Shown here piece after piece: positions 12,495 to 54,248 of a stretch of DNA of 64,000 nt (the first letter of the stretch is position 1; each line of letters begins with the position of its first letter). Source of the DNA: Patescibacteria group bacterium (GTDB taxonomy: Bacteria > Patescibacteriota > Patescibacteriia > UBA10025 > JAHIVO01); the NCBI GenBank assembly GCA_043808365.1, contig JAZDEZ010000015.1, positions 20,683-84,682 on the forward strand, in the 5' to 3' direction. The notes under the pieces are model-generated. The model did not search any database, was not told the DNA's origin, and worked only from the letters and a program-made list of their open reading frames with translations. The translations under genes and the position numbers were made by a program.

Positions 12495-13742
12495 ATGGCC
12501 AAACTATACGCTTTTATCCTCGGTAAAAACCCCATCCTTTCAGTGGCGGAGATCTTTTGTCGGGCGAAAATTGAGGGCGTAACCTTCTCAATCGCCGAAT
12601 TGACCAGCCAAGCGCTGATCGTCAGCGCCAGCCAGCCGATTGGCGCCGCGGCCTGGCAAGAATCTCTGGGGGGATGCATTAAAATCGGGGAAATATTCAA
12701 AACATACGATAGCCTCAAGCAGTTCTTGGCCGACATCTCTTCAGATTACCTGATAGCCGAGATATTCCCCGCTCACGAGAAAAAAATAATTTTCGGATTC
12801 AGCCTCTACGGCGATCCGGTTATCCGCGAGCAGAAAAAATTCCTGACGGCCGGCCTCACTATAAAAAAGGCGCTCAAAGAATCCGGACGGAGCGTCCGCC
12901 TGCTCACCGGCAAAGAGCCGGCCCTGTCCAGCGTCCAAGTAGACAAGAATAATCTCCTGTCAAGAGGCGCGGATTGCCTGGTGATAGGCAGCTTGAATAA
13001 AATTTATTTTGGTAAAACCGTGACCATGCAGGATTATGAGGATTATTCAGCGCGTGACTATGGCCGGCCTCAGCGAGACGCCCGGGCCGGGATGCTCCCT
13101 CCAAAACTGGCAAAAATCATGATCAACTTGGCCGTCATAACCCACGACCAATATATCCTCGACCCGTTTTGCGGCTCCGGCACCATCCTGCAGGAAGCTC
13201 TCACCCTCGGCTATCACCGCGTTGCCGGCAGCGATATCAGCTCAAAAGCGGTTACGGATACAAAGCAAAATCTCGACTGGCTCGCTTCCGAGCGTCAATT
13301 GCCAAAAACCGATATCGTCCTGGACCAGGCTGACGTCCGGAAACTCGACAGCACGATCACGGCAGGATCAGTCGACGCGATTATTACCGAGCCATTCCTC
13401 GGCCCGCCGCTGACGCCCCATACGCCAATCATCAATATCCTGGCGATCATCCAGGAGCTGGAATCGTTGTACCTGGACGCTTTTAAAACATTTTCAAAAA
13501 TCCTGAAGTCGGGCGGGAAGGTCGTCATCGTATTCCCGCTCATCAAGACTCCCCATGGCATTTTCTGTCTGCGCATCCTGGAGCAGCTGACCACTCTCGG
13601 CTTCCGCCGGCTTAACCCGATCCCCGAAGACATTTCCCTGTTCGCTAAAATCGGCCCAACCGCCCGCGGCTCCATCCTCTACCACCGCGAGGGGCAGATG
13701 GTGGAGCGTGAAATATTCATATTTCAATTGAACAAATCCTGA
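12495..13742 (+). CDS. THUMP-like domain + class I SAM-dependent RNA (guanine-N2-type) methyltransferase, Trm11/TrmN/RlmL-like.
   Basis: MLPPKLAKIMINLA, motif I DPFCGSGTILQEA, and an ITEPFLGPP catalytic box. The N-terminal ~190 aa form a ferredoxin-like/THUMP-like domain. Confidence 0.6.
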   Translation: MAKLYAFILGKNPILSVAEIFCRAKIEGVTFSIAELTSQALIVSASQPIGAAAWQESLGGCIKIGEIFKTYDSLKQFLADISSDYLIAEIFPAHEKKIIFGFSLYGDPVIREQKKFLTAGLTIKKALKESGRSVRLLTGKEPALSSVQVDKNNLLSRGADCLVIGSLNKIYFGKTVTMQDYEDYSARDYGRPQRDARAGMLPPKLAKIMINLAVITHDQYILDPFCGSGTILQEALTLGYHRVAGSDISSKAVTDTKQNLDWLASERQLPKTDIVLDQADVRKLDSTITAGSVDAIITEPFLGPPLTPHTPIINILAIIQELESLYLDAFKTFSKILKSGGKVVIVFPLIKTPHGIFCLRILEQLTTLGFRRLNPIPEDISLFAKIGPTARGSILYHREGQMVEREIFIFQLNKS

Positions 13743-19942: not shown

Positions 19943-20125
19943 TATAAAACCCTTCACTGAGCTCGGGATGAAGGCTGTGCCCGCGGCGGTATGAATAAAT
20001 GCACGCGCAACCACGGCGGGTTGCGCTCCGAGGGTAATAAAAATCGGGGCGGCGCTATTGCCATCCTTCTGAAACCAACCTCTGACTTCCTGACTAATTT
20101 CTAACAACTAAAAACTAACTACTAA

Positions 20126-27026: not shown

Positions 27027-28346
27027 ATGAATGCGCAAACTACACTCGTATCGCCGAATGAACTGAAAGACTCTGCCCTGTCGGTCAAAGCGCGGCTCGA
27101 TGGGTACCAGGTGGGTTTCGGCGAGGACAGGCGATTTATGTCGCTGGTCAGTCCGGCCCCGTACCTGATCTCAACTGACGACCACCAGACGTTGAAAAAG
27201 CGCGGCCACGTGATCCGCCAATGGGTCGAGACGACAAACCGCCTCTACCACGCGTCGCTCACTGATCCGTCGCTATTCTGGCTCCGTGACCTGCTGGAAA
27301 CCGGACTCAACGACGAAATGCGAGCCATCCATCGTCAGCTCCACGCCAAGCAGCCGATGCGCGCCCCGTTCTTCATGCGGATGGACCAGCCGACATTTAC
27401 CTGCGCCGCAGAAGCGCAGACTCCCGGCTCCGGCTGGGGGTACCACGCCGCGCTGGCCACCTGCTACGAGGAATATACCGTCCTCGGAAGATCATTCGTC
27501 GCCAGAGTCGCTCACACATTGCGGGAACTGACGGGTAAGGATCGTCCACGCGTGGTGCACCTGCTGCATAAAGTCGATTATTACGGCACTGAAGCAACAT
27601 TCTTTGCCCAAGCTATCCGAGCCGCTGGCATTGATTTCACTATCAGTGTCAGAACCATTCCTGAAAATATCAAAACCTATGACGTTGTTTTCCGCCACTA
27701 CTTGGAGGAACTCGGTCAATACTCTGGTTGGCAGAATCTGTTGGGACTGTACGATCGCGGCGGCATCGAAATCGAACCTGCTCCTAACATCATCACCGAC
27801 CATAAGATCTCTATGATGCTACCGTTCCATCCGAGGACGTTCATGTATTATTCGGATGCCGTACGCTCCATTTTCCCGGCGACGTACCTGGTCGACCCGT
27901 ACGCTACCTACCAGATGCGCATCAGTAATAACTATGCGCACCCGGTCAGGCTAAGCAACCTGCCAGGCATCCCGCCGAAACAGCGCCGGCTGACGCTGAA
28001 GTACGCAGGCATGGATCCTCAAAAACGCGCCGGCGGGCGGGGAGTGTTCAACCTATCCATGAGCGATGAAGCTGAAATCAATCGGCTCCTCCAGCAGGTC
28101 ATTGATGACACCTACAACGGCATACCATGGCTGCTTCAGGAAATGGTGTTGCGGCGGTATCCGGTTACATACCTATCGGCTGAAGGCGCCATCGCCAACG
28201 ACCAGTGGTACGCCCGCATCAACCCGTTCTATGCCTTTCCGGCATCCGGCGGGAGTGAACTGCTCGGATGCCCCGTGCATTTCCGGAATTTCTGGAAAGT
28301 GCATGGGCAGCCGGACGCGGTGGAAACAATCATGGCAATTGCTTGA
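27027..28346 (+). CDS. Hypothetical protein, possibly a glutathionylspermidine-synthase-like (circularly permuted) ATP-grasp ligase.
   Basis: RMDQPTFTCAAEAQTPGSGWGYHAAL resembles the R-x-D...E-x-N-A-D-T-P motif of GSP-synthetase/YgiC-like ATP-grasp proteins. This is a weak, motif-only call. Confidence 0.35.
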   Translation: MNAQTTLVSPNELKDSALSVKARLDGYQVGFGEDRRFMSLVSPAPYLISTDDHQTLKKRGHVIRQWVETTNRLYHASLTDPSLFWLRDLLETGLNDEMRAIHRQLHAKQPMRAPFFMRMDQPTFTCAAEAQTPGSGWGYHAALATCYEEYTVLGRSFVARVAHTLRELTGKDRPRVVHLLHKVDYYGTEATFFAQAIRAAGIDFTISVRTIPENIKTYDVVFRHYLEELGQYSGWQNLLGLYDRGGIEIEPAPNIITDHKISMMLPFHPRTFMYYSDAVRSIFPATYLVDPYATYQMRISNNYAHPVRLSNLPGIPPKQRRLTLKYAGMDPQKRAGGRGVFNLSMSDEAEINRLLQQVIDDTYNGIPWLLQEMVLRRYPVTYLSAEGAIANDQWYARINPFYAFPASGGSELLGCPVHFRNFWKVHGQPDAVETIMAIA

Positions 28347-28519: not shown

Positions 28520-28688
28520 GCGCACCCAGAGACAGGTGCGCTCGGAGGATATTCATTATCCTACCTCACCCATCTGAATCCAACATCCAACCACTAACTT
28601 CCTAACCAACTTCTTACCCTCCCCCTTATAGCTCCCATAGCTCTTCTATCCCCACTAACTACTAACCTACTAATGGCTAGCTACTAGC
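28520..28688 (+). repeat. Copy B of the pyrimidine-rich intergenic element. Its tail overlaps the last codons of Elp3.
   Basis: GCGCACCCAGAGACAGGTGCGC hairpin after a T-run, then ATCCTACCTCACCC...CATCCAACCACTAACTTCC...CTAATGGCTAGCTACTAGC, collinear with copy A. Confidence 0.5.
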
Positions 28689-30250
28689 TTCCTCACCATA
28701 TACGTCTTTTCCAACCGGTACCCCAGCTTCCGATAGTACTCACGCACCCCGATTCCTGAAATGACAGCCATTTTTATATAACCTTTTTTCTTCGCGATAC
28801 GTTCTGCTTCAACCAATAACCGCTTGCCAAAACCGATGTGCTGGACTGCTTTTTTCTTCCCGCCGATTGGCATTAGCTCCCCGTACGTATGCAATTCGCG
28901 TATTAACGCAGTCTCATCATCAAACGCACCAATAAAACGTTTTGCCGGAGCTGGCAGCCACAACCGGATAAAGGCGTATAGTTTTTTCTCGTCTTTGCTT
29001 TCAAAACTGATAAAATGCTCCTCGCCTGCTCCAGCCCTATAAACACGCTCTTTCAGTTTTACCTGATTTTGTTTAACGATCTCTTTTCGCGCCTCACGGC
29101 AACGGATGCATTTGCATTTCACCCCACGCTCCTGCAGCAACTGGCGCAAGTTCGTGGTCATGTTGCCAGCCACGATGTCCGGACCGGGAATATCACGGAT
29201 CAAACGGTTGATACGTACATAGGGTGGCATGATGCCTTTTATTTTTATCAGCAACTCCACTAATTGCTTATTGCTATACGGCTTATACCTGCCCTGCTGG
29301 TACCACTGATACAATAAAGAATTTTTCACCACCAAGCAGGGATATATCTTCAGCATATCCGGCTGGAACCGTGAATCGCCGAAAACTATTTTGAATGTAT
29401 CAAAATCTTTCTTCGGCGTGGCGCCAGGCAAACCGGGCATCAGATGATACGTGAACTTGAATCCGAACGCACGCAACAATGACGTAGCACGAGCAATATT
29501 ATCCAGCGTGTCATCCCGTTTGACCAGATCTAAAATGTCCTGATGCAGCGTCTGCACCCCGATCTGCACGTGCGTGCATCCCAGCTCGCGCATCCGCCAC
29601 AGCTCGGCCGAGGTCACGTGGTCAGGCCGCGTTTCCAAACTCAAACCGATAATCCGATGCTTTGCAGTTTCATTGATCTTCTGCGCCTTTTGAAGTGTCT
29701 TTGCCGTAGACTGTAGTCGGCAGTCCGTCGCCTCATTCGCCGCGTCAAAACACCGCTTAATAAACCATGTCTGGTAATCGTGCGGGTAATGCGACCACGT
29801 CCCTCCCAAGACAATCAGCTCAATCTTATCCGCGCTATGGCCATTGGCCTCCAGCGTGGCAATGCGCATTTTTACCTGCTGATACGGGTCGAACTTCAGG
29901 CTCAACCCCCTTTGCGCGGCCGGTTCGGATGACAGGTAGCTTTTCGGCATCCTGGCTTCTGTCGGGCAGTATACGCATCGGCCCGGGCACGGATAGGGTT
30001 TTGTTAATACGGTGACTGGCGCCACGCCGGACAGCGTCCTGATTTCGCGCTTGCGCAATAGCCGCAACAGCCGCTGGTCGGGGTTTTTTATTCCCTGCTT
30101 TCGGTACTGCCCCAGTATCTCGGAATTGGGTATAATGGTGGTGCGGTATTTAGTGGCCAACAAACGCTTGGCCTGACGGACCGCGGCAACCGTCTCTGGC
30201 TTGGCTCGTACGAAATCACGCGTATATTTTTGCAAAGTTTTCTTATTCAT
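28670..30250 (-). CDS. Elp3-family protein (radical SAM + GNAT), the bacterial homolog of the tRNA U34 carboxymethyltransferase.
   Basis: Radical-SAM cluster CPGRCVYCP, and a C-terminal GNAT domain (GYIKMAVISGIGVREYYRKLGYRL). 526 aa. Confidence 0.8.
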   Translation of the reverse strand: MNKKTLQKYTRDFVRAKPETVAAVRQAKRLLATKYRTTIIPNSEILGQYRKQGIKNPDQRLLRLLRKREIRTLSGVAPVTVLTKPYPCPGRCVYCPTEARMPKSYLSSEPAAQRGLSLKFDPYQQVKMRIATLEANGHSADKIELIVLGGTWSHYPHDYQTWFIKRCFDAANEATDCRLQSTAKTLQKAQKINETAKHRIIGLSLETRPDHVTSAELWRMRELGCTHVQIGVQTLHQDILDLVKRDDTLDNIARATSLLRAFGFKFTYHLMPGLPGATPKKDFDTFKIVFGDSRFQPDMLKIYPCLVVKNSLLYQWYQQGRYKPYSNKQLVELLIKIKGIMPPYVRINRLIRDIPGPDIVAGNMTTNLRQLLQERGVKCKCIRCREARKEIVKQNQVKLKERVYRAGAGEEHFISFESKDEKKLYAFIRLWLPAPAKRFIGAFDDETALIRELHTYGELMPIGGKKKAVQHIGFGKRLLVEAERIAKKKGYIKMAVISGIGVREYYRKLGYRLEKTYMVRKLVASH

Positions 30251-30970
30251 ATGGACGAACGTTTTGCGGAAAAATTAATGGCTATGAACGCGACGACCTA
30301 TCAGGCTATTGCTGACCAGTTTTCTGCCACCCGAAAATTCATCTGGGAAGATTTCAAGCCTTTGATGGAATATATAGCTATTGGCGAGAAAGTGCTCGAT
30401 GCCGGGTGCGGTAATGGCCGGCTCTATGAGTTATTGAAAGAAAAACACGTAGAGTATGCCGGCCTGGATTTGAGCGGCGAACTTATCGCCATCGCGAAGC
30501 GTCAATATCCCGAGTTAAAATTCATTGCTGGTAACATTCTGGATCTGCCGTTCCCGCCCGGTTCGTTTGACGTTGTTTTTTGCATTGCCACGCTTCATCA
30601 CCTGCCCACAGAGAAACTGCGCGCACAGGCCATCCGACAATTCTACAAAGTCCTGCGTCCAGATGGACGGCTGGTCATGCTAAACTGGAACCTGCTGGCC
30701 TCGAATTGGTGGCTGATCCATGCAAAAATACTTTGGCAGCGAATCATTGGCAAAGGGCGTATTTCATTCCCTGACGTCATCAAACTCTGGAAAAATGAAT
30801 CCGGGGCCGTAGTCGGCCGTCGCTATATTCATGGATTCCGCACATCGGAACTGTCAACACTATTGGACCATAATGGCTTCTCACAGGTACAGCAATATTA
30901 CACTAAAAAAGGCCATCCGGCTACGCGGCGGACCGGCTACAACCTTATTACTATAGCCAAAAAGGCTTGA
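30251..30970 (+). CDS. Class I SAM-dependent methyltransferase (Trm9/UbiE-like motif I).
   Basis: VLDAGCGNGRLYELL motif I and the post-I acidic GLDLS. Start taken at ATG 30251, which directly abuts the complement of the Elp3 start codon. The listed ORF begins at 30230. Confidence 0.6.
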   Translation: MDERFAEKLMAMNATTYQAIADQFSATRKFIWEDFKPLMEYIAIGEKVLDAGCGNGRLYELLKEKHVEYAGLDLSGELIAIAKRQYPELKFIAGNILDLPFPPGSFDVVFCIATLHHLPTEKLRAQAIRQFYKVLRPDGRLVMLNWNLLASNWWLIHAKILWQRIIGKGRISFPDVIKLWKNESGAVVGRRYIHGFRTSELSTLLDHNGFSQVQQYYTKKGHPATRRTGYNLITIAKKA

Positions 30971-33071: not shown

Positions 33072-33188
33072 CAATTCCAACATCTTCAACGTCATAAACA
33101 GTTTCAACAATTTGAACGGTTTCAACATCTTCAACATTTTCTTCCCACTAACTACTAATGGCTAACTTACTAATTACTAACTAACTAG
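33072..33188 (+). repeat. Partial copy C of the pyrimidine-rich element (CAACATCTTCAAC repeats plus stop-rich tail).
   Basis: TCCAACATCTTCAACGTCAT...TTCAACATCTTCAAC...CCCACTAACTACTAATGGCTAACTTACTAATTACTAACTAACTAGCC, ending immediately before the murI ATG. Confidence 0.35.
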
Positions 33189-52879: not shown

Positions 52880-54031
52880 TTACTTCTTCAGTACGCCAAC
52901 CTTATCCAGCTTCTCCCAGGGGAATTCCACGTCAGTCCGGCCGAAATGCCCGTAGGCGGCAGTCTTCTCATAGATCGGCTGCTTAAGGTGCAGTTGCTCG
53001 ATGATATCCGCCGGTTTTAACGGGAAATGCTTCCTGACCAAATCTTCCAGATCACCGTTCTCCAGCTTGCCGGTGCCGAACGTATTGATCATGATCGAAA
53101 CCGGCTCGGCCACGCCGATAGCATAAGCCAACTGGACTTCGCACCGCTTGGCCAGGCCCGCGGCGACAATATTTTTTGCGATATAACGCGCGGCGTATGA
53201 AGCGCTGCGATCGACTTTGGTGACGTCTTTGCCGGAAAAACACCCTCCTCCATGCGCGCCTACCCCGCCATAGGTATCAACAATTATCTTGCGGCCAGTC
53301 AGGCCCGTGTCGCCTGGAGGCCCGCCAATGACAAAGCGGCCAGTGGCGTTAATAAAAAAATTAATTTTTTCATCGTACCAATCTCCCAAAACTGGTTTGA
53401 TGACATACTCCTTAATGTCTGCCCGAAGTTTCTCCATTTCCACGTCTTCCGAATGATGCGCGGCAATGACCACCGTCTCAATGCGATGCGGCTTGTCGTC
53501 CGCATACTCTACGGTCACCTGCGATTTGCCGTCGGGCCTTAAATAAGGAAGCTGGCCGCTCTTGCGAACCTCGGCCAGTTTATGCGTGAGCCGGTGAGCC
53601 AGTGAAATGGTCAATGGCATGTACTCCGGCGTCTCGTCGCAGGCGTAGCCGAACATCAGGCCCTGATCGCCGGCCCCCTGCTCCTTGCGCTCGCCCGTGC
53701 CGTCCACGCCCTGGGCGATGTCGGGCGATTGTTCGTGGATGGTGCTGATCACGCCCACATCCTTATAGCAGAAACCGTACTCGGATTTGTCGTACCCGAT
53801 TTTCTTGAGTGTCCGGCGGACGATCGCCTGGATGTCCACATAGCCGGTCGTCTTGACCTCGCCGCCGACCAGCACCAGGCCGGTGGTGACAAAACATTCC
53901 ACGGCCGAGTGGCAGTCCTTATCCTGCTTCAGCATGTCGTCATACACCGCATCCGAGATTTGGTCGCACACCTTGTCCGGGTGCCCCTCCGTGACCGACT
54001 CCGAGGTGAATAATTTTTTCTGATGTGACAT
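52880..54031 (-). CDS. metK: S-adenosylmethionine synthetase.
   Basis: [29 protein letters not shown]. Confidence 0.9.
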
Positions 54032-54061: not shown

Positions 54062-54248
54062 GTAAAAAATAAAAAAAATCTCCTATCAGATAAGAGATTA
54101 CTACAGAGAATTCACCTCTTATCTATCCCCCGCACCTTGAGGCGTGGGAGCTGGACTTAGCACCCGAACTTCGTCTTGTGCCCGAATGGGTTGCTGGAGT
54201 GTCAACGGCCCAGTTGCCTACACTCACTCTTGATAATTGGTTGGGTTG
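54062..54248 (-). ncRNA. SAM-I (S-box) riboswitch with a terminator expression platform, in the metK leader.
   Basis: Read on the minus strand: UUAUCAAGAG...CUGGGCC...AGCAACC...GGUGCUAAGUCCAGC...P4 hairpin...GAUAGAUAAGAGG, which follows the SAM-I consensus order. It is followed by the AATCTCTTATC-TGAT-AGGAGATT hairpin and U8. Confidence 0.65.

Follow-up and report, generated by a model that had tools for sequence, protein, structure and literature searches.

The question raised by this locus is what a bacterium of the Candidate Phyla Radiation (CPR) might do with Elp3, the catalytic core of the eukaryotic and archaeal machinery that modifies the wobble uridine (U34) of tRNA, when its gene lies start to start with that of a class I methyltransferase dependent on S-adenosylmethionine (SAM). 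The locus is in a stretch of 64,000 nucleotides from contig JAZDEZ010000015.1 of the metagenome-assembled genome of a Patescibacteria group bacterium, which was analyzed whole and is hereafter called the window (64 kb). In the eukaryotic system, Elongator and Trm9-Trm112 (ALKBH8-TRMT112 in mammals) convert U34 to 5-carboxymethyluridine (cm5U) and then to 5-methoxycarbonylmethyluridine (mcm5U), and the same two catalytic proteins appear to be encoded here. The analysis points to a probable tRNA modification pathway of the Elongator type in bacteria: the methyltransferase is likely to be a Trm9-type enzyme working on the product of Elp3, a function predicted from its conserved catalytic residues and from gene linkage, and there is good reason to think that the locus as a whole specifies a two-enzyme pathway of the archaeal/eukaryotic type for U34.

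Elp3 and the predicted Trm9-type methyltransferase

The window Elp3 matches TIGR01211 over residues 22-522 of 526 with a score of 549.4 bits (cutoff 350), and Pfam detects Radical_SAM and Radical_SAM_C domains in it, with no separate GNAT call. Its best matches in the PDB are the Elp3 structures of Methanocaldococcus infernus (MinElp3) and Dehalococcoides mccartyi (DmcElp3), at approximately 1e-126 (1.4e-125 for DmcElp3), and the yeast, mouse and human Elp3 structures match at 1e-91 to 1e-96; the alignment to solved structures reaches residue 521. For MnmL/YtqA the window protein scores far below the cutoff (82 versus 180 bits), and it carries a GNAT domain. An earlier note, made from the sequence alone, had called this protein a stand-alone Elp3, and the identification stands on the TIGR01211 score, the matches to solved Elp3 structures and the presence of both radical SAM and acetyl-CoA motifs; the motifs that the note had quoted, CPGRCVYC in Elp3 and VLDAGCGNGR in the methyltransferase, were located in the two proteins (Table 1). 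The basic N-terminal extension, of about 66-75 residues, aligns with the N-terminus of MinElp3: the alignment with MinElp3 starts at residue 42 of the window protein and that with DmcElp3 at residue 67. The N-terminal region of Elp3 is important for tRNA binding according to Lin et al. (PMC6367351), and the Cys triad is conserved across bacterial and archaeal Elp3 (PMC6367351). Acetyl-CoA hydrolysis that depends on tRNA, and the formation of cm5U34, have been shown for MinElp3 and only weakly for DmcElp3 (PMC6367351, PMC7663514). The NCBI product name of TIGR01211 speaks of 5-carboxymethylaminomethyl and spreads to bacterial annotations; the documented product of Elp3 is cm5U, not 5-carboxymethylaminomethyluridine (cmnm5U).

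The evidence that carries the assignment of the methyltransferase is at the level of residues, with Trm9-specific catalytic residues conserved outside the SAM-binding core. In Trm9 of Saccharomyces cerevisiae (ScTrm9), the substitutions D72A, H116A, W145A and W168A abolish activity, and R29A, R241A, Y243A and N271A each remove at least 90% of it; R29 and H116 were proposed to position the cm5 carboxylate, W145 to stack on U34 and N271 to read O2/N3 (Letoquart et al., PMC4678810). Residues of the window protein were mapped by alignment of hidden Markov models to the crystallized Trm9 of Yarrowia lipolytica (YlTrm9; the chain index is the YlTrm9 residue number minus 35), and their conservation was counted over 85 members of the bacterial family. 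R28, which is aligned to YlTrm9 R40, is present in 85 of 85 members and Y17 in 81, within an N-terminal motif Y17-x3-A-x2-F-S-x-T-R28-x3-W32 in which tyrosine and arginine are 11 residues apart, the spacing of Y18 and R29 in ScTrm9. Y17 presumably corresponds to ScTrm9 Y18; it lies outside the crystallized fragment, and the correspondence rests on spacing and the published numbering. The counterparts of the other catalytic residues are listed in Table 1. R28, D73, H117, W146, W180 and R191 are invariant when the window protein is compared jointly with YlTrm9, the Dehalococcoides protein and a protein of a third bacterial lineage, and the Trm9 residues are kept in all 13 family loci in which no Elp3 was detected within 6 kb.

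Comparisons of whole sequences and folds point to the same family. The best phmmer match in the PDB is YlTrm9 (chain 5cm2_Z, 5e-15, residues 49-219) from the Trm9-Trm112 complex 5cm2, and the alignment runs past the SAM-binding core; a profile of 25 family members scores YlTrm9 at 97.9 bits and the runner-up at 81.7. The AlphaFold (AF2) model of the methyltransferase, with a mean predicted local confidence (pLDDT) of 92.9, retrieves YlTrm9 at rank 1 in Foldseek (E 3.7e-17, target TM-score 0.82, 26% identity). The structure that is the second-best PDB match, 3sm3, was considered as an equal model and set aside, as HH, W, W and R are all missing from it. Scores against the NCBIfam models of UbiE/MenG, BioC, UbiG and CmoB are far below their cutoffs (51 versus 158; 47-49 versus 185-342; 39 versus 103; 24 versus 209 bits). 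The methyltransferase is 100% identical to an NCBI protein from a "Patescibacteria group bacterium". One family member bears the label "alkB family protein 8" (ALKBH8) from automatic annotation by JGI, and other homologs are labeled "UbiE" or "class I SAM-dependent methyltransferase" in their sources.

Table 1. Features of the Elp3-methyltransferase locus, in coordinates of the window; fractions are counts among the 85 family members.
Feature	Coordinates	Strand	Remarks
Elp3 gene	28670..30250	-	526 aa, ATG start; radical SAM and C-terminal GNAT/lysine acetyltransferase (KAT) domains; predicted tRNA U34 cm5U synthase
Trm9-type class I SAM methyltransferase gene	30251..30970	+	239 aa; predicted tRNA cm5U34 carboxyl O-methyltransferase (cm5U to mcm5U)
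Junction CATATG, palindromic	30248..30253	.	complement of the Elp3 start codon touches the methyltransferase ATG
Basic N-terminal extension, Elp3 residues 1-75	30026..30250	-	20 K+R versus 5 D+E; archaeal/eukaryotic type
Radical SAM [4Fe-4S] motif CPGRCVYC, Elp3 residues 88-95	29966..29989	-	aligns with DmcElp3 CPGKCIYC (alignment of a relative)
Cys triad CKCIRC, Elp3 residues 379-384	29099..29116	-	Zn-binding motif; CRCIRC in DmcElp3
Acetyl-CoA motif QHIGFG, Elp3 residues 470-475	28826..28843	-	KAT domain (Q/R-x-x-G-x-G/A); aligns with DmcElp3 QHRGLG
N-terminal Trm9 signature YQAIADQFSATRKFIW	30299..30346	+	Y17, presumed counterpart of ScTrm9 Y18; R28, counterpart of ScTrm9 R29
SAM motif I VLDAGCGNGR	30392..30421	+	methyltransferase residues 48-57
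GLDLS, D73	30461..30475	+	counterpart of ScTrm9 D72 (SAM-binding acid, end of beta-2); 85/85; YlTrm9 GSDRS
TLHHL, H116/H117	30590..30604	+	counterparts of ScTrm9 H115/H116 (after beta-4); H117 84/85; YlTrm9 IHH
LNWNL, W146	30680..30694	+	counterpart of ScTrm9 W145 (proposed U34 stacking); 85/85
KLWKN, W180	30782..30796	+	counterpart of ScTrm9 W168; W 77/85, Phe in the remainder
RRYIH, R191	30818..30832	+	counterpart of ScTrm9 R241 (RYYH strand); R 80/85
GYNLI, N231	30935..30949	+	probable counterpart of ScTrm9 N271 (uracil O2/N3); N 84/85; start of last strand of the model
Sigma70-like match TTGGCT-16-TATATT	30201..30228	+	within the Elp3 coding region; ends 22 nt before the methyltransferase ATG; candidate promoter
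Terminator-like hairpin with T run	28520..28541	-	about 130 nt past the Elp3 stop codon; 1 found versus 0.4 expected

Conservation of the gene pair in other genomes

Four homologs of the methyltransferase with 38-49% identity (one from Kerfeldbacteria, one from Peregrinibacteria and two from other CPR bacteria) were looked up individually, and in each case a gene for an Elp3-like radical SAM protein is divergent from the methyltransferase gene while the other neighbors differ. A scan with the family alignment of one genome per GTDB species, in which Elp3 was detected by tblastn with the window protein, yielded 80 loci from records labeled Magasanikbacteria, Kerfeldbacteria, Falkowbacteria, Kuenenbacteria, Portnoybacteria, Komeilibacteria, Paceibacterota, Parcubacteria, Peregrinibacteria and Gracilibacteria; some labels of genome bins may be unreliable ("uncultured Gammaproteobacteria", "Saccharibacteria", "Pacearchaeota", "Pirellulales"). 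Elp3 is encoded within 6 kb of the methyltransferase in 67 of the 80 loci, divergently in 64 and on the same strand in three, and 60 of the 64 divergent pairs are immediately adjacent (gap of at most 330 bp). In a locus of Gracilibacteria (L075:492-2694) the two genes are co-directional, Elp3 first, in an operon-like arrangement with a gap of 13 bp, and the linkage therefore survives rearrangement. No third conserved gene family was found around the pair in the 80 loci, the next commonest neighbor being present in 17. The reverse search, starting from Elp3, found the methyltransferase divergently upstream in eight of ten metagenomic Elp3 loci; one of the two others (L094) is archaeal, judged by its neighbors GatD and GatE, and has Elp3 with no adjacent methyltransferase. 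Another locus that carries the pair (L089) belongs to a non-CPR bacterium, judged by its neighbors UppS, CdsA, Frr and PyrH.

The pair is also present in Dehalococcoidia. In D. mccartyi (CP019867), 43 bp separate the gene for the crystallized DmcElp3 from a divergent upstream gene whose product, a methyltransferase of 224 residues, is a member of the same family (hhalign probability 99.9) with its R, HH, W, W, RYY and N residues intact. A second genome of Dehalococcoidia has the same divergent arrangement, and the gaps in these two genomes are 43-74 bp. The expectations of the earlier note that the methyltransferase would be Trm9-like instead of clustering with small-molecule enzymes, and that the pair would be syntenic in other genomes, are thus both borne out: the first by sub-cutoff scores for those enzymes, Trm9 as the top PDB match and the catalytic residues, the second by adjacent divergent pairs in 60 of 80 loci, across CPR lineages, and by Dehalococcoidia.

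A mirror-tree comparison of Elp3 and methyltransferase distances gave r = 0.60, with none of 2000 permutations as high. The value agrees with co-inheritance and is given little weight because any two vertically inherited genes would correlate. Family members occur under the labels Pacearchaeota (L077), Pirellulales (L012) and Omnitrophota (L083), the first two with the Elp3 pair; such members outside the CPR could be due to lateral spread or to mis-binning. In one locus of Peregrinibacteria (L006:12-1570), Elp3 is present as two open reading frames (ORFs) of 261 and 258 codons that split Radical_SAM from Radical_SAM_C, an arrangement that may reflect a frameshift, an error of assembly or a pseudogene.

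The start-to-start junction

The CAT|ATG junction with 0 bp between the two start codons, as claimed in the earlier note, was read directly from the sequence, and the choice of start codons was checked against homologs. All start codons are computational assignments, and a nearest-ATG rule was applied in the comparison of loci. In the Elp3 frame, no start codon lies between the upstream stop and the ATG at 30250, and the TIGR01211 alignment begins 21 codons later, at residue 22. The methyltransferase ORF in a mechanical list of ORFs begins at an upstream TTG (30230); the ATG at 30251 was preferred because its product matches the homologs, all approximately 239 residues long, from its first residue onward. 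A gap of 0 bp is also found in two close relatives and in the 49%-identical homolog from Kerfeldbacteria (L001).

A junction of this kind could be an unselected by-product of genome streamlining or of mis-assigned start codons, and four considerations lend themselves to that explanation: CPR genomes are compact, the start rule favors the nearest ATG, a start at the TTG of codon 6, the next one available to Elp3, would place the genes 15 bp apart, and no -10 box is conserved in position. The distribution of gaps speaks on the other side. The genome scan found a gap of at most 11 bp in 39 of 64 divergent Elp3-methyltransferase pairs (13 with CATG, in which the start codons overlap by 2 nt, and eight with CATATG); with the four earlier look-ups included, the 68 divergent pairs comprise 15 with CATG, nine with CATATG and 17 others with gaps of 1-11 bp. 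One naive gene caller was applied to all divergent pairs within the same loci as a control, and the median gap is 3.5 bp for the Elp3-methyltransferase pair versus 165 bp for other divergent pairs, with gaps of at most 11 bp in 36 of 52 and four of 60, respectively (Fisher p = 1.4e-12). CATG or CATATG occurs in 24 independent loci, among proteins whose identity is as low as about 35%; gene calls made independently for L001 and L004 give gaps of 0 or -2 bp; and in many loci the alignment of the N-termini begins at residue 1. An unselected by-product is therefore unlikely, and the near-zero junction is a characteristic of the Elp3-methyltransferase module and no accident of one genome.

Predicted chemistry and points against it

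By homology, the stand-alone Elp3 would bind the anticodon stem-loop of tRNA, aided by its basic N-terminal extension; it would cleave SAM at the [4Fe-4S] cluster, the KAT domain would take the acetyl unit from acetyl-CoA, and this unit would be attached to C5 of U34 to form cm5U. The Trm9 ortholog would then use SAM to methyl-esterify the cm5 carboxylate, yielding mcm5U34, which a separate enzyme may thiolate to 5-methoxycarbonylmethyl-2-thiouridine (mcm5s2U). In the active site of the methyltransferase, R28 and H117 would position the carboxylate, W146 would stack on the uracil, N231 would read O2/N3 and W180 would stack on the neighboring base. The abutting or overlapping start codons probably couple the expression of the two genes.

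Several observations weigh against this prediction. Trm9 requires Trm112 in both eukaryotes and archaea. No Trm112 motif was found within the window, and no Trm112-like gene is among the conserved neighbors in the 80 loci; a zinc-ribbon gene near the Dehalococcoides pair was tried as Trm112 and rejected for lack of a match to Pfam Trm112p. Pfam and NCBIfam return only generic methyltransferase matches (Methyltransf_11, Methyltransf_25 and, at 36 bits, Ubie_methyltran), and YlTrm9 leads the other class I methyltransferases in Foldseek by a small margin, which is usual for this fold; because of this small margin, the decisive evidence was taken at the level of residues. There, the window protein has I193 at the position of ScTrm9 Y243, where 52 of 85 members have Tyr, and the equivalence of N231 and N271 is by deduction, not by alignment, because YlTrm9 has a beta6-beta7 hairpin approximately ten residues shorter than the one with N231 and the PDB alignment stops at D221, before N222. 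No Elp3 is encoded within 6 kb in 13 of the 80 loci, and in four of these the upstream sequence is shorter than 1.1 kb. Derivatives of cm5U (xcm5U) are undocumented in bacteria, and DmcElp3 is weakly active in vitro (PMC7663514).

The zinc-ribbon protein of Dehalococcoidia is a conserved protein of 72-75 residues with the motif CPDC...CWKC (L097:4423-4650 and L098:4387-4605, both on the minus strand), encoded two genes downstream of the Trm9-like methyltransferase, after a gene of the ArsP_1 family; its scores against Pfam zinc ribbons are below threshold.

Some of these points would fit a pair that acts jointly on tRNA and makes a product other than mcm5U, whether through a different group at C5, a different intermediate or atom, or a different RNA target. 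To the lack of any bacterial xcm5U nucleoside in the published measurements (PMC7663514), the variable Y243 equivalent, the longer hairpin and the missing Trm112 can be added the NCBI name of TIGR01211, which refers to cmnm5 and not to cm5. The conservation of the carboxylate pair R28/H117 and of the uracil contacts W146 and N231, with canonical active-site motifs in Elp3, argues instead for the same substrate group and the same base, and a different product is improbable. That the methyltransferase is a generic enzyme of the small-molecule or quinone type (UbiE/MenG/BioC), with no functional meaning in its adjacency to Elp3, agrees with its broad Pfam matches and with the names of its homologs, and is extremely improbable given the scores far under the cutoffs for these enzymes, the conserved Trm9-specific catalytic residues, and a pair kept in 60 of 80 loci with varying other neighbors and in Dehalococcoidia. 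An mcm5U34 pathway of Elp3 and Trm9 is therefore the preferred reading of the locus.

Transcription of the two genes

With start codons that touch or overlap it follows, as the earlier note argued, that each promoter would have to be within the coding sequence of the partner gene, and that the promoters and ribosome-loading regions of both genes would have to sit within the first codons of the partner. A scan of the junction for sigma70-like promoters gave one match (Table 1) versus 0.8 expected, which is the chance level, and no Shine-Dalgarno sequence precedes either gene in the window. A logo of the 41 short-gap junctions has A/T richness alone, with no -10 element at a fixed position. TATAAT recurs on the Elp3 strand in many short-gap loci at -50 to -45 from the Elp3 ATG; it mirrors, as the reverse complement, the codons of the conserved Asp-Tyr(17) of the methyltransferase, so that its recurrence is explained by coding, and it could also serve as a -10 element of an Elp3 promoter. 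Leaderless transcription of both genes was rejected, as neither has a TAnnnT box 5-7 nt before its ATG. Transcription might, for instance, start from promoters embedded mutually in the two genes, with short untranslated leaders devoid of a Shine-Dalgarno sequence, or yield antisense transcripts that overlap at their 5' ends.

Other genes of the window have strong GGAGG Shine-Dalgarno sites, and nine of the 54 predicted genes (those starting at 12495, 14259, 16818, 18953, 20126, 23427, 31063, 51053 and 60469) carry a -10-like TAnnnT box, in many cases with TG in front of it, that ends 5-7 nt before the ATG; among all ATGs of the window, just 3.3% have a box so placed. This pattern suggests that leaderless mRNAs are frequent in this CPR genome.

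On the downstream side, the terminator-like hairpin (Table 1) suggests that the Elp3 transcript is monocistronic. The 3' untranslated region of about 130 nt between the Elp3 stop codon and the hairpin is filled by an ACTAAC-rich tract; such G-poor, ACTAAC-rich intergenic tracts are found at 28550-28670, 33147-33187 and 20114-20121. The sequence ACTAACTA occurs five times in the window versus 0.61 expected, and none of 100 shuffles reached five.

Comparison with known systems

The pathway is known in eukaryotes and some archaea; what appears new here is the occurrence of bacterial Trm9 orthologs in an Elp3 module, and both the absence of a visible Trm112 and the start-to-start junction could turn out to be variant features. 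The locus lacks Elp1, 2, 4, 5 and 6 of the eukaryotic system as well as any AlkB or RRM domain, and Trm112 was not detected; further differences are that its genes form a physical pair, that Tyr is not always present at the position of Y243 and that the beta6-beta7 hairpin is longer. With the archaeal stand-alone Elp3 of M. infernus and M. jannaschii, the window Elp3 shares the stand-alone state, the basic N-terminal extension and the zinc-binding Cys triad. Archaeal Trm9 has been reported solely in Sulfolobales and Halobacteriales, where it works with Trm112. Examples are HVO_1032 of Haloferax volcanii and the Elp3-Trm9 cluster of Sulfolobus solfataricus, whereas the host here belongs to Patescibacteria. 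The gene cluster in Sulfolobus was noted in 2008 by Grosjean et al. (PMC2584109), and mcm5U is documented in H. volcanii (PMC7663514). The start-to-start junction is undescribed for the archaeal Elp3/Trm9 systems.

DmcElp3 (PDB 5L7J, 5L7L, 6IA6) has the same domain architecture as the window Elp3 and a divergent Trm9-like methyltransferase, but is without the basic N-terminus of approximately 66 residues, and the junctions in the two genomes of Dehalococcoidia are 43-74 bp and not 0. The bacterial MnmE-MnmG pathway (with MnmC) for 5-substituted U34 (xm5U34) modifies tRNA at the same position, presumably to the same end in decoding, but its chemistry is unrelated, with glycine or ammonium, folate and FAD in place of acetyl-CoA and radical SAM. 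Motifs of MnmG, MnmE, MnmA and Trm112 were searched for in the window and none was found, in a sample of 64 kb that is too small to conclude that these proteins are absent. MnmL/YtqA is an Elp3-like radical SAM protein that has part of the radical SAM fold in common with the window Elp3.

A 2026 paper mentions Elp3 in "numerous bacteria" and nothing further. One review treats bacterial Elp3 as a rarity with no evidence of xcm5U products (PMC7663514), and another finds no detectable bacterial homologs of Trm112-dependent methyltransferases, including Trm9 (PMC5372719). In the searchable literature, no bacterial Trm9 is described, nothing relevant was found on Elp3 or Trm9 with CPR or on Patescibacteria with MnmG, and papers that name both Dehalococcoides and Trm9 refer to Dehalococcoides only through the Elp3 structure; DmcElp3 is treated there as an isolated curiosity, with no partner methyltransferase.

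Other features of the window

A SAM riboswitch (RF00162; 55 bits versus a gathering threshold of 44.4) is predicted at 54116-54239 on the minus strand, upstream of an ORF of 383 codons (52880-54031, minus strand). Convergent to Elp3 is an ORF of 439 codons (27027-28346, plus strand) with a strong GGAGG site and no Pfam match at E <= 1e-4.

Significance for bacterial tRNA modification

A broader reading is tentative, and we regard it as possible with judgment leaning against it: the mcm5U34 pathway would be widespread and ancestral-looking in Patescibacteria and Dehalococcoidia, as a Trm112-free module that may replace MnmE-MnmG, and the junction would be a selected mode of co-expression through mutually embedded promoters or 5'-overlapping antisense transcripts, a mode undescribed for divergent bacterial genes. 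The start-to-start junction is in any case a clean natural instance in which to study promoters embedded in coding sequence. The candidate Trm9 may work without Trm112, which would make it useful for enzymology, and its assignment offers a functional name for approximately 2,000 database proteins that are labeled "class I SAM-dependent methyltransferase" or mislabeled UbiE. The occurrence of the pair also bears on the movement of translation-related genes between archaea and CPR or Chloroflexota. Contrary to the reviews, the full route from Elp3 to Trm9 is indicated to be common in an enormous radiation of bacteria, and it adjoins the crystallized Elp3 of a cultivable organism, for which it predicts that mcm5U or mcm5s2U would be present in the tRNA of D. 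mccartyi.

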